Source: a virus. Taken from it: a stretch of 22,749 nucleotides of DNA. The position numbers and the translations under genes are program-made. This document shows, piece by piece, positions 9,058 to 22,749 of this stretch (positions within the stretch are counted from its first letter, which is position 1; the number at the start of each line of letters is the position of its first letter). Location: UHGV virus genome UHGV-0233466. The stretch is one strand, 5' to 3'. The notes under the pieces are model-generated. The model ran no database searches and had not been told where the DNA came from. It saw only the letters and a program-made list of their open reading frames with translations.

Positions 9058-10044
9058 ATGGCTGTTAAAGGCTTAACTGCGCTAACGCTGGCTGACTGGG
9101 GTAAGCGCGTCGATCCAAACGGGAAAGTCGATAAGATTATCGAGCTTCTCGGTCAAACTAACCCGATCCTTCAGGATATGCCTTTTGTCGAAGGGAACCT
9201 TCCTACCGGACACCGAACCACCATTCGTTCTGGTTTACCTTCAGCTACCTGGCGTTTGCTGAACTATGGCGTACAGCCAAGCAAATCAACCACAGTGCAG
9301 GTAACCGATTCCGTTGGCATGCTGGAAACCTATGCGGAAGTCGATAAGTCACTGGCTGATCTGAACGGCAATACCGCCGAATTCCGCCTTTCTGAAGACC
9401 GCGCATTTATTGAAGCGATGAATCAGCAGATGGCGCAGACGCTGTTTTATGGTGATTCCAGCGTTAATCCTCAGCAGTTTATGGGACTGTCCTCCCGCTA
9501 TTCCAGCCTGTCTGCGGGTAATGCTCAGAACATCATTGATGCTGGTGGCACGGGTACAGATAACACCTCAATCTGGTTAGTGGTGTGGGGCGAAAACACC
9601 GTGCATGGCATCTTCCCGAAAGGGCAGAAGGCTGGCATCCAGATGGAAGATAAAGGCCAGGTGACACTGGAAGATGCTAATGGCGGCAAGTACGAAGGCT
9701 ATCGCACCCATTACAAATGGGATAACGGACTTGCTCTGCGTGACTGGCGTTATGTTGTTCGCATTGCAAACATCGATGTCAGCAATCTTTCAGAACCATC
9801 CTCTGCCGCAAATATTGCGAAGTTGATGGTTAAAGCACTACATCGCATTCCAAACCGTGGCATGGGCCGCCCGGTGTTCTACATGAACCGCACTGTAGGC
9901 CAGGCTCTTGATCTGCAGTCTCTGGAGAAAACATCTCTGGCTATCAGCGTAAAAGAGACAGAAGGCGAGTGGTGGACTTCATTCCGTGGTGTACCAATCC
10001 GTGAAACTGATGCGCTTCTGGAAACAGAAGCCCGCGTGGTGTAA
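9058..10044 (+). CDS. major capsid protein (about 328 aa; alternative ATG at 9052)
   Basis: GAGAGGA SD at 9044-9050; size and position after the scaffold; followed by a stem-loop. Confidence 0.7.
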   Translation: MAVKGLTALTLADWGKRVDPNGKVDKIIELLGQTNPILQDMPFVEGNLPTGHRTTIRSGLPSATWRLLNYGVQPSKSTTVQVTDSVGMLETYAEVDKSLADLNGNTAEFRLSEDRAFIEAMNQQMAQTLFYGDSSVNPQQFMGLSSRYSSLSAGNAQNIIDAGGTGTDNTSIWLVVWGENTVHGIFPKGQKAGIQMEDKGQVTLEDANGGKYEGYRTHYKWDNGLALRDWRYVVRIANIDVSNLSEPSSAANIAKLMVKALHRIPNRGMGRPVFYMNRTVGQALDLQSLEKTSLAISVKETEGEWWTSFRGVPIRETDALLETEARVV

Positions 10045-20793: not shown

Positions 20794-21357
20794 TTAGCAT
20801 GATTCAGGGGAAACCCCAATATTAAATATGAGTGACTCCCCTGAATCAGCATAATAATGTAATATTATTGACTTACGTTGTTTTCTTGCTTCGTAGAATA
20901 AACGCTCTTGCGGCGATAATTTGTGAAAACTGCCGGATGCACAATATATGTTTTTTAACTTTTCGCTGGTTGCTTTTATTGTATCTTCTGAGATGTATTT
21001 TAGGTATTTATCCGTATAGATGTTGCTACTATAAGAAATTAATGTTTTGCTGTTGTTGTGATGTATTGTATTTTTATCGTTGAAGTCTGTATTTTTATTT
21101 ACTGTCATTAGGTTTTTAATGATTACATGTAATACAATAGTCTCCCCATCATCAATTCCATATTTGATGTCATAGTCAGTATATTTATTTGTTATACCGC
21201 TTCCTGATAGCGGCACTATGTACTCTGAGAAAAATGAGTTTGCCGCGTGACCATCAAGAGCAATAGCTGTTTTTTTGTGGTAAAAATAAAACAATATTGA
21301 GAGAGTCAAAATAATAGCGACGCCTAATGCAACCTTTAATATAGATATGGTTTTCAA
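20794..21357 (-). CDS. AT-rich membrane-anchored protein (about 187 aa from a TTG start with a strong SD; alternative ATG at 21384); positional analogue of a superinfection-exclusion gene
   Basis: AGGAG (complement of 21365-21369) 7 nt upstream of TTG at 21357; N-terminal hydrophobic helix ISILKVALGVAIILTLSILFYFY followed by an Asn/Tyr/Lys-rich soluble domain; GC far below the neighbouring virion genes. Confidence 0.5.
   Translation of the reverse strand: MKTISILKVALGVAIILTLSILFYFYHKKTAIALDGHAANSFFSEYIVPLSGSGITNKYTDYDIKYGIDDGETIVLHVIIKNLMTVNKNTDFNDKNTIHHNNSKTLISYSSNIYTDKYLKYISEDTIKATSEKLKNIYCASGSFHKLSPQERLFYEARKQRKSIILHYYADSGESLIFNIGVSPESC
20800..20848. repeat. 12-bp perfect inverted repeat TGATTCAGGGGA / TCCCCTGAATCA with 25-bp spacer, at the junction of the virion module and the AT-rich leftward module
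   Basis: Read directly; overlaps the 3' end of the leftward membrane-protein gene; contains an inner GGGG-AAA-CCCC hairpin. Confidence 0.8.
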
Positions 21358-21447
21358 AATATCGCTCCTTGTTGTAACATACATCAGTAATGTGGCGTTT
21401 TTCAATTGTATTAAAGACGTGTAATATGTACACGCCTTTTGTTCTTC

Positions 21448-21879
21448 CTATTCAGGTATTTCAATTCCAAAACCATCTGCATCCCATGAGTTTTCACAGA
21501 TGATGTAACCTAGTTCATTGAGCTTATTAAATGTTTTTTCAAAGATGATCTGGTAATCATTATCTGCAAGTGATTCCAGTTCAAGGTCATTAAGGTTTAT
21601 ATAAAAACTTGTATGTCCAAGTGTTATTTTCTTATTAATTTCATTAAAGGTTCTTTTGAAAATAATATTTGATATTTCATGCCGTGCATTGTTTGCAATA
21701 ATTTTTGCTTCATAAGCAGAAATTACGTCATCTTCATGAATATCTTTCAGAAAGCTGGTGTCAAGACGTTGTACTATTTCAGCGTTCATTGATCGCTTAT
21801 TGGCTTTTGCAGAAATTTCTATTTTTTCTTTTACTTCAACGGGAAGTCTGATCCTTAGTTGTGGATCTTCTCTGCTCAT
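21448..21879 (-). CDS. Mnt-type ribbon-helix-helix repressor fused to an uncharacterised C-terminal domain of about 95 aa (143 aa total)
   Basis: N-terminus MSREDPQLRIRLPVEVKEKIEISAKANKRSMNAEIVQRL closely parallels recalled P22 Mnt (MARDDPHFNFRMPMEVREKLKFRAEANGRSMNSELLQIV); ATG at 21879 with GGTGAAG upstream; the track ORF extends further to a TTG start. Confidence 0.65.
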   Translation of the reverse strand: MSREDPQLRIRLPVEVKEKIEISAKANKRSMNAEIVQRLDTSFLKDIHEDDVISAYEAKIIANNARHEISNIIFKRTFNEINKKITLGHTSFYINLNDLELESLADNDYQIIFEKTFNKLNELGYIICENSWDADGFGIEIPE

Positions 21880-21915: not shown

Positions 21916-21965
21916 AAGTATGCCTCACCGTGTGCTTGACATCAATGACGCACGGTGTGACAATT
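21916..21965. promoter_or_regulatory. divergent overlapping promoters and operator region of an immI-like switch
   Basis: Rightward TTGACA (21936-21941), 17 bp, GACAAT; leftward TTGATG (complement of 21942-21947), 17 bp, CATACT; the two -35 boxes are back to back in TTGACATCAA; flanking direct repeats ACCGTGTG / ACGGTGTG. Confidence 0.45.
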
Positions 21966-21999
21966 GTTTTGCCCCACGGTGGGGCTAAGGAGATATGAA

Positions 22000-22167: not shown

Positions 22168-22240
22168 AACAGCGAAGCCCAACGGTGGCCAGACCGTCAT
22201 GGCTTCAGTATCGTAAAACTACGTATAGGAATTAACGACA
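22165..22240 (-). ncRNA. predicted sar-like small antisense RNA covering the ant translation start
   Basis: Minus-strand promoter TTGATA (complement of 22269-22274), 17 bp, TATACT (complement of 22246-22251), giving a start near 22239; minus-strand terminator hairpin GAAGCC...GGCTTC (22174-22206) followed by GCUGUUUU; same arrangement as P22 sar. Confidence 0.4.
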
Positions 22241-22749
22241 TGACGAGTATAGCAACAGCGGTATCTACTATCAACGTGCCATTCCACGGCGTAGAACTTT
22301 ATGTTGTCAATCACAACGGCGAACCGTACACACCAATGAAGCCTATCGTTGAGGGAATGGGTATGGATTGGGCTTCACAGTTTACGAAAATGAAGCAGCG
22401 GTTTAAAACCTGCATTGTGAAAATCACAATGCAGCTTCCTGGGGATGAACAGCGCCGTGAGATTATTTGTTTGGCACTTCGCAAACTTGCTGGCTGGTTG
22501 CAAACCATCAGCCCTAACAAAGTCCGTCCTGAAATCCGCGACAAGGTAATCCAGTATCAGGAAGAGTGTGACGATGTGCTCTACGAGTACTGGACTAAAG
22601 GCCATGTGGTTAACCCACGCAAAGCTAAAAAGGCGTTGCCGGGTAAAATAACCACTGAACAGCAGGAAGCCATTAAACAACTCGTCATGAGTCGCGGTCA
22701 GTCTCTGCCAAAAGAAAAACAGGCTAAGGCGATGATCACCATGTGGTCG
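22240..22749 (+). CDS. antirepressor (Ant-like, AntA-type N-terminal domain), 5' part only; runs off the window end
   Basis: ATG 22240 with AGGA upstream; open frame of 170 codons to the window edge; motif PFHGVELYVVNHNGEPYTPMKPIVEGMGMDW recalled from phage antirepressors; position after arc. Confidence 0.65.
   Translation, partial: MTSIATAVSTINVPFHGVELYVVNHNGEPYTPMKPIVEGMGMDWASQFTKMKQRFKTCIVKITMQLPGDEQRREIICLALRKLAGWLQTISPNKVRPEIRDKVIQYQEECDDVLYEYWTKGHVVNPRKAKKALPGKITTEQQEAIKQLVMSRGQSLPKEKQAKAMITMWS

Follow-up and report, generated by a model that had tools for sequence, protein, structure and literature searches.

The question raised by this locus is whether two small neighbouring genes form one phage-encoded module or have come to lie side by side independently. 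They are found near the right end of the virus genome UHGV-0233466, a stretch of 22,749 nucleotides that was analysed at its full length and is called the window here, in which two minus-strand open reading frames (ORFs) occupy positions 20794-21879. The upstream gene encodes a Mnt-type repressor of 143 amino acids, termed long Mnt, and the downstream gene encodes an exported or membrane-anchored protein of 187 amino acids. A first-pass annotation, made from the DNA letters alone, had described the pair as leftward and AT-rich, and the GC contents bear this out (0.322 for the mnt gene and 0.326 for the 187-residue gene, against 0.46-0.48 in the flanks of the two-gene interval, 0.464 in the neighbouring gene for a 1004-residue protein and 0.483 in the whole window). 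The same annotation had proposed that the two genes work together in superinfection exclusion or phage defence. Taking the identities of the genes and their independence together, comparison of sequences makes it likely that they are instead two independent things, adjacent only in this prophage lineage.

The distribution of the two gene families carries this conclusion. Of 23 loci outside E. coli that encode the long-Mnt C-terminal domain, each fetched with 3-5 kb of flanking DNA, none carries a member of the 187-residue family, and none of the seven loci with the 187-residue family carries Mnt; the proposed coupling was therefore not upheld. Both genes co-occur only in one near-clonal prophage of E. 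coli and Escherichia phage TL-2011b (97-99.9% nucleotide identity). It could still be argued that the pair is a single unit, in which the membrane protein is governed by, or acts jointly with, a DNA-binding switch that has an added sensor domain, the two making up a new form of exclusion or defence. The genes are, after all, adjacent, co-oriented and similarly AT-rich, they always keep company in complete E. coli genomes, and the 93-nt gap between them holds weak terminator and promoter signals only, so that co-transcription is possible. However, each family occurs without the other everywhere outside the near-clonal prophage, and the conserved partners differ, being the Arc/Ant operon for Mnt and the last core gene for the membrane protein. 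There is also no operator-like site upstream of the membrane protein gene, and PADLOC gave no supported match by which the pair could be placed as a known defence system. A single module is thus very unlikely, the gene distribution having largely refuted it already.

The gene downstream of long Mnt in other loci is usually a convergent virion gene and sometimes other, co-directional cargo. In Citrobacter sp. OP27 (L022), co-directional gtrA/gtrB-like genes lie ~210-1500 nt past the Mnt stop codon, a small multi-span protein being followed by a glycosyltransferase-like protein that starts MKISLVVPVFNEE. Lysogen-expressed cargo may tend to collect behind the long-Mnt gene.

The 143-residue protein is, by sequence and predicted structure, a true Mnt, comprising the whole of phage P22 Mnt (a ribbon-helix-helix (RHH) domain and a tetramerisation helix) plus a 57-residue alpha/beta domain. 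The Pfam Arc family (PF03869) was matched with 54.5 bits at a cut-off of 20.4, the top sequence match in the PDB was P22 Mnt itself (1mnt, E 3.5e-7), and BLASTP aligned residues 1-86 with residues 1-83 of P22 Mnt, its full length, at 32% identity (E 3e-14). The family phrog_1388 spans the protein end to end (residues 1-143), the RefSeq counterpart is WP_000085730, 'Arc family DNA-binding protein', and the long-Mnt alignment shows no variation at strand residues Q7, R9 and R11. An AlphaFold2 (AF2) model, based on a 49-sequence alignment (pLDDT 81), showed residues 87-143 as a small strand-helix-strand-strand domain. Where the P22 type of Mnt has ~83 residues and a coiled-coil end, this protein thus carries an added conserved domain. 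An N-terminus of the Mnt RHH type followed by about 60 extra residues of no named family had been noted in the first-pass annotation, and that description stands. DUF5447 was matched by none of the 26 long-Mnt C-terminal sequences scanned, and literature searches returned nothing specific on long Mnt or on the 187-residue protein. In TL-2011b (L001, NC_019445), one extra G is present in mnt codon 9 at ~9150-9160, corresponding to ~21853 of the window; it is absent from the window and the E. coli prophages, it shifts the frame, and the annotated coding sequence is truncated to 113 aa. Either the sequence is wrong at this point, or mnt is truly defective in the induced phage.

Long Mnt had been taken for an unusual fusion, an idea that did not survive comparison with other genomes: judged by sequence, a widely distributed Mnt/Arc/Ant cassette has it as its standard repressor, with full-length relatives spread over the Enterobacterales. 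A protein search found 262 relatives, and the 120 that were listed are nearly all 142-152 aa long, the exceptions being a few fragments and longer calls; near-identical E. coli copies aside, these show 58-69% identity over nearly the full length. Host genera among the matches listed include Yersinia (with Y. pestis), Salmonella, Enterobacter, Klebsiella, Citrobacter, Proteus, Morganella and Xenorhabdus, as well as others. When the control region of the window (21922-21985) was compared with those of loci L009, L012, L015 and L020-L033, it was found to be nearly identical in 17 loci from 14 genera, reading ATTATGCCCCACGGTGGGG-TTGACA-nCAATGACGCACGGTGTGACA-...-GCCTCACGGTGGGGCA and followed by the same Arc-like gene. 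An antirepressor gene comes next in every locus examined, with a head of the Bro-N, KilA-N or P22_AR_N type. The cassette sits in tail or virion gene clusters of lambda-like (Y. pestis) and HK97-like (Enterobacter, Salmonella) prophages, and is therefore portable. On the Yersinia pestis chromosome (L009-L011) it lies in a lambda-like tail cluster, with the tail K-like (JAB/NlpC) gene on one side and the tail I-like gene on the other, and in some of these strains IS200-type Y1 transposase genes are close by.

In the 120-bp control region, three related 15-mers with a CAC(C/G)GTG core, here O_L, O_M and O_R, lie 25 and 24 bp apart (three sites against 0.4 expected, and none elsewhere in the 22.7-kb window). 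In most other cassettes O_L is a perfect palindrome, CCCCAC(C/G)GTGGGG. O_R and the P22 Mnt operator (Omnt, aggTCCACGGTGGAcct) have a common CCACGGTGG core and an equal position; set beside P22 TCCACGGTGGA, O_R (GCCCCACGGTGGGGC) likewise lies downstream of the -10 element of Pant, the promoter reading into arc and ant, in a divergent arc-ant arrangement. The Pant-like promoter, a strong one, is kept in 17/17 cassettes. The putative mnt promoter, Pmnt, has a -35 element that shares 2 bp with the Pant -35, and its -10 element is CATAAT in most cassettes. A common pattern of strand residues is found in long Mnt (Q7, R9, R11) and the Arc-like protein (Q9, R/K11, R13); these are presumably the base-contacting residues, an assignment taken over from the known structures of Arc and Mnt. 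The presence of three operators with one core is consistent with the same predicted recognition residues in both proteins. In three Xenorhabdus loci (L024, L031, L032) a second middle operator and a -10 element are found in place of the right operator, which suggests tandem promoters. The sar RNA has a promoter at 22274-22246 and a terminator at 22195-22176, both on the minus strand, and its Rfam match places the antisense layer of P22 immI, the second-immunity region, in a non-P22 phage.

The interpretation that best fits these data is that long Mnt is the maintenance repressor of a P22-type immI cassette, and that it would be expressed leftward from a promoter that lies back to back with Pant and overlaps it. 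The RHH domain of long Mnt would, in the lysogen, bind the CACGGTG-core operators, chiefly the palindrome just past the Pant -10, and would so silence the Arc-like repressor and the antirepressor, with the sar RNA adding antisense control. The extra domain may provide added self-association, giving a repressor that occupies cooperatively three operators spaced 24-25 bp apart; this is our preferred guess. It could be instead that the extra domain binds a signal or a partner, such as Ant, Arc or a host factor that releases repression, in which case the cassette would be a regulated induction switch. We regard this as possible but doubtful, because no ligand-binding fold was recognised, the interchangeable Ant heads speak against a specific Mnt-Ant contact, and cooperative binding explains three evenly spaced operators more simply.

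The second gene was examined in the same way. Its mechanical ORF comprises 203 aa from a TTG at 21405, and a further TTG at 21357 has an AAGGAG sequence 7 nt upstream. The latter is most likely the real start, giving 187 aa, since it agrees with RefSeq WP_023352470, with phrog_8033 (which covers residues 17-203 of the longer reading) and with P0121, the closest relative. The first-pass annotation had predicted an N-terminally anchored envelope protein, and indeed a single N-terminal hydrophobic segment is followed by a body rich in Asn, Tyr and Lys, within which residues 88-102 form a disordered Asn-rich insert. The N-termini of relatives look plainly signal-like (for example P0127 and P0131), and Cys139 and Cys187 are invariant across the family, which together make an exported, disulfide-bonded domain the natural reading; the disulfide is probable, judged from the conserved pair. 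At ~30% identity the family retains 16 invariant columns and a C-terminal motif, YYD..G..L.F..GVSPESC. The closest predicted folds are those of PA3611 (PDB 3npd) and the AspS/GspS-beta pilotin (PDB 4ftf), at only 8-15% identity, and the predicted fold has the five-stranded sheet flanked by helices seen in those proteins. The model thus suggests a PA3611/AspS-like fold, which in pilotins is a peptide-binding fold.

The family is very small. A HMMER search of 1.84 billion representative proteins recovered only 17 clusters, to which a profile search added a few members from Providencia and Proteus. The protein had no sequence match in Pfam, NCBIfam or the PDB, nothing at E < 0.001 in the viral structure library (BFVD), and no homologue in any other sequenced phage. 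Two candidate matches were set aside. The ThsB/TIR-like PADLOC match is unsupported by the predicted fold. The three tandem domains of iota-carbonic anhydrase (7c5x) were weakly and repeatedly matched by the family profile at positions 29-102 with an overall E of 9e-5 and per-domain values of 2.8-9; the match is at odds with the predicted secondary structure and is treated as probable chance, although it is unexplained.

In 6/6 relatives with enough flanking sequence, the gene of the 187-residue family lies 10-35 nt after the last core gene (encoding 937-1133 aa) and is convergent with it. Its family has changed more quickly than the core protein next to it (28-32% identity, against 33-51% for the core protein), and related E. 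coli prophages have other small envelope-protein genes in the same slot, which is hypervariable. An unrelated N-anchored protein of 175 aa occupies it in E. coli MS8345 (L018 5105-5632, minus strand) and a 98-aa protein in UTME-9 (L019 5102-5398, plus strand). Providencia prophages have an additional 175-aa signal-peptide protein beside the 187-residue homologue (L005 5352-5879, minus strand), and related free phages carry yet other genes in the slot and no immI.

The 187-residue gene is best read as an accessory gene in the variable slot that follows the last core/ejection gene, its product probably being exported or anchored in the inner membrane with the body in the periplasm. It would most likely be made in the lysogen, transcribed either from a weak promoter belonging to it or through read-through out of mnt. 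Our best guess is that the protein obstructs the periplasmic conduit through which related incoming phages eject their DNA, which would make it a functional analogue, and not a homologue, of P22 SieA. This assignment to superinfection exclusion is plausible but tentative, and less likely than not. The chief alternative is a host-directed envelope role, in which the protein would be a lysogenic-conversion factor, for example a pilotin-like binder of a secretin or other envelope machine (a type II secretion system (T2SS) or pili) that changes secretion or the surface of the lysogen. In favour of this, the folds most like that of the protein are those of PA3611 and of AspS, a T2SS pilotin that binds the S-domain of the secretin (PMC3542185); members of the family are exported and keep a pair of conserved cysteines, and the other cargo behind long Mnt includes genes of the gtr type for O-antigen modification (L022). 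Note, however, that true pilotins have a lipobox and this protein does not, that no Pfam pilotin match was obtained and the structural matches reach only 8-15% identity, and that the gene stays in strict synteny with core/ejection genes of phages over 28-43% identity, which argues for a phage-related role. A host-directed function is thus considered unlikely.

A further reading is that the ORF is an AT-rich insert in decay or without a function, or else that it serves lysis as an accessory, for example as an i-spanin. The small size of the family, the truncated or frameshifted relatives (P0127-P0130, P0139) and a type-II-like topology resembling that of i-spanins would fit. Against this, all 36 E. 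coli prophages carry the ORF intact, at 97-99.9% identity, the invariant columns persist across ~30% identity, and AF2 gives a confident globular fold and not a coiled coil, so that an explanation of this kind is highly improbable. An i-spanin was rejected in particular because the protein is globular by prediction and TL-2011b has its spanins elsewhere, these being of the Bcep176 family that is common with epsilon15 and phiV10 (PMC6139136).

Several observations weigh against the account favoured here, that is, two independent genes of which one is an immI repressor and the other an envelope accessory. The complete E. coli genomes carry both genes together in 36/36 cases, which alone would fit a unit. 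For the repressor, the 57-residue domain has no match in Pfam or the PDB, its predicted fold matches nothing and its role is a guess; Pmnt falls under the promoter-scan threshold and was read by eye only; and the predicted base contacts (Q, R/K, R) of the Arc-like protein and Mnt are the same, so that occupancy of the operators is not assignable to one or the other. For the 187-residue protein, a His-Lys-Lys sequence right after the hydrophobic segment leaves the topology unsettled by the positive-inside rule, and the relatives and the cysteine pair were relied on. PADLOC returned nothing for Mnt and only the 15-bit TIR-like match for the 187-residue protein.

A bolder proposal may be put forward. 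The 187-residue family would be a new class of superinfection exclusion, in which a pilotin-like periplasmic domain tethered to the inner membrane catches incoming podoviruses by a terminal segment of their T7-type core (gp15/gp16-like) ejection conduit; independently of this, the extra Mnt domain would make immI a cooperative, three-operator and possibly signal-responsive switch that has spread among unrelated Enterobacterales prophages. We consider this proposal rather doubtful. We know of no prophage-encoded blocker of T7-type ejection conduits; no search aimed at one was made.

The nature of the phage itself was also reconsidered. The right end of the window is 99.3% identical to Escherichia phage TL-2011b, and the same prophage is present in 36/5426 complete E. 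coli genomes. The 5' neighbours of the gene for the 1004-residue core protein encode a core protein of the T7 gp14 family and a protein with an SLT domain (RefSeq annotation), and these virion core genes, of the T7 gp14/SLT/large-core type, have kin in Klebsiella, E. coli and Vibrio podoviruses. By sequence, the phage is a TL-2011b-type prophage with T7-type internal core proteins, and not P22-like. An epsilon15-like nature of TL-2011b was considered and dropped, the virion core genes having given no epsilon15 or phiV10 match. Just past the right end of the window (L001 10815-11514; L002 8813-9358), genes for a YafO-family toxin, a small membrane-anchored protein and a second Bro-N protein are found, all of which precede the tailspike in the prophage. 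The coordinates of the features are collected in the table.

Table 1. Features of the two-gene interval and its surroundings in the window
Feature	Positions	Strand	Basis or remarks
Long Mnt-type repressor gene, 143 aa plus stop	21448-21879	-	ATG 21879, stop 21448-21450
RHH DNA-binding domain, residues 1-46	21742-21879	-	Pfam, PDB match, AF2 helices 14-26 and 31-44
Long helix, residues 55-86, counterpart of P22 Mnt C-terminal tetramerisation helix	21622-21717	-	AF2; BLASTP alignment to last P22 Mnt residue
Extra C-terminal alpha/beta domain, residues 87-143, not in P22 Mnt	21451-21621	-	Family unassigned
Operator O_L, GCCTCACCGTGTGCT	21922-21936		In spacer of putative Pmnt, abutting Pant -35
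Operator O_M, GACGCACGGTGTGAC	21947-21961		Between Pant -35 and -10, position of P22 Oarc
Operator O_R, GCCCCACGGTGGGGC, perfect palindrome	21971-21985		Just downstream of Pant -10
Pant-like promoter, TTGACA-17-GACAAT, reading into arc and ant	21936-21964	+	Consensus scan 10/12, with TG
Putative Pmnt: TTGATG (21945-21940), 17-nt spacer, CATACT (21922-21917)	21917-21945	-	By eye
Gene for 187-aa exported or anchored protein	20794-21357	-	TTG start; Shine-Dalgarno AAGGAG at 21365-21370
N-terminal hydrophobic segment, ~residues 4-26, signal anchor or signal peptide	21280-21348	-	AF2 helix 2-27; hydropathy scan
Exported globular domain, residues 31-187, PA3611/AspS-like alpha/beta fold	20797-21267	-	Predicted
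Signals between the two genes: hairpin 21418-21434 with short T run; promoter-like TTGAAA-18-TATGTT at 21405-21376	21376-21434	-	Consensus match, 9/12
Arc-like repressor gene, 55 aa	22000-22167	+	phrog_228, Arc-like repressor
sar antisense RNA between arc and ant	22171-22238	-	Rfam RF00262 full length, 43.6 bits, gathering score 43, E 5e-7
Antirepressor gene, P22_AR_N domain	22240-22749	+	Pfam P22_AR_N E 5.6e-45; RefSeq annotation; extends past window end
Last large internal core/ejection protein gene, 1004 aa	17768-20782	+	Convergent with 187-aa gene; relatives annotated 'internal virion protein'

The textbook P22 immI circuit also exists in a longer form with three operators. This form has spread far more widely than the version of P22 itself, occurs in siphovirus and podovirus prophages alike, and is labelled in databases only as 'Arc family DNA-binding protein'. 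The extra domain and the operator layout offer a concrete system in which to study how antirepressor modules are silenced and how they move between phages. The fast-evolving exported protein with its predicted pilotin-like fold provides a candidate, open to experiment, for exclusion directed against ejection conduits of the T7 type. Neither point, the long form of Mnt or the exported protein, alters a major concept.

Compared with known systems, the gene order is that of P22 (ejection genes, a leftward membrane protein gene, leftward mnt, rightward arc and ant), as the first-pass annotation had recognised when it placed the two genes in the sieA and mnt positions. The likeness to sieA extends to a slot between the last ejection gene and mnt, a leftward orientation, a small envelope protein and possibly a promoter of its own (PMC10883804); the 187-residue gene also lies between the last ejection gene and tailspike/immI, as sieA does. 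P22 has an annotated terminator after mnt and a separate sieA promoter, which the intergenic hairpin and weak promoter recall, these being consensus matches only. Homology to SieA was nevertheless rejected, and the plain SieA homologue that had been named as a possible outcome was not found. BLASTP gave an E of 0.15 over the hydrophobic/transmembrane stretch only, and the protein belongs to a separate PHROG (8033). SieA has three or four transmembrane helices and a cytoplasmic FxRYPxEAxxFNK motif (PMC10883804), whereas the 187-residue protein lacks that motif and is predicted to have one N-terminal hydrophobic segment and a ~155-residue exported globular domain. SieA blocks ejection and interacts genetically with the ejection proteins (PMC10883804); those of the present phage are T7-type core proteins and not P22 gp7, gp20 and gp16.

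The likeness to AspS and PA3611 lies in how the elements are predicted to follow one another (alpha1, then three beta strands, helices, another two strands and a short C-terminal helix). A conserved disulfide links alpha2 to the C-terminal helix in AspS, and PA3611 has its disulfide there too; Cys139, where helix 124-138 ends, and Cys187, the C-terminal one, are at equivalent places. All these proteins are periplasmic or predicted to be so (PMC3542185). The differences are that the 187-residue protein has no Pfam match, that a membrane anchor or signal replaces the lipid anchor, with no cysteine in its N-terminal 30 residues and no lipobox, that it carries the Asn-rich disordered insert, and that it is encoded in a prophage, with no secretin gene present in the locus.

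For long Mnt, proteins of the PA0718 type from Pseudomonas Pf prophages are a further comparison, since in them, too, an RHH/Mnt N-terminus is joined to further domains (PMC7549136). Residues 1-125 of long Mnt align at 40% identity with a Pf phage protein; the PA0718-type proteins differ in their genomic role, with no Arc/Ant partner described, and in having an extension annotated as DUF5447. The cassette as a whole resembles P22 immI, which has the same gene order and orientation, overlapping divergent promoters, an operator within the Pant spacer and a palindrome with the same core just past the Pant -10, together with a sar RNA recognised at Rfam level, a P22_AR_N antirepressor and a Mnt that is homologous over its full length. 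The present cassette differs in the extra alpha/beta domain of its Mnt, and in having three related operators 24-25 bp apart where P22 has one Omnt and one unrelated Oarc. The recognition residues of the P22 proteins, which we take to be Q, N and R in Arc and H, N and R in Mnt, differ from each other, whereas the Arc-like protein and Mnt share Q, R/K and R here. Lastly, in contrast to immI of P22, the cassette is portable, since it occurs in this podovirus and also within the tail clusters of lambda-like and HK97-like prophages.

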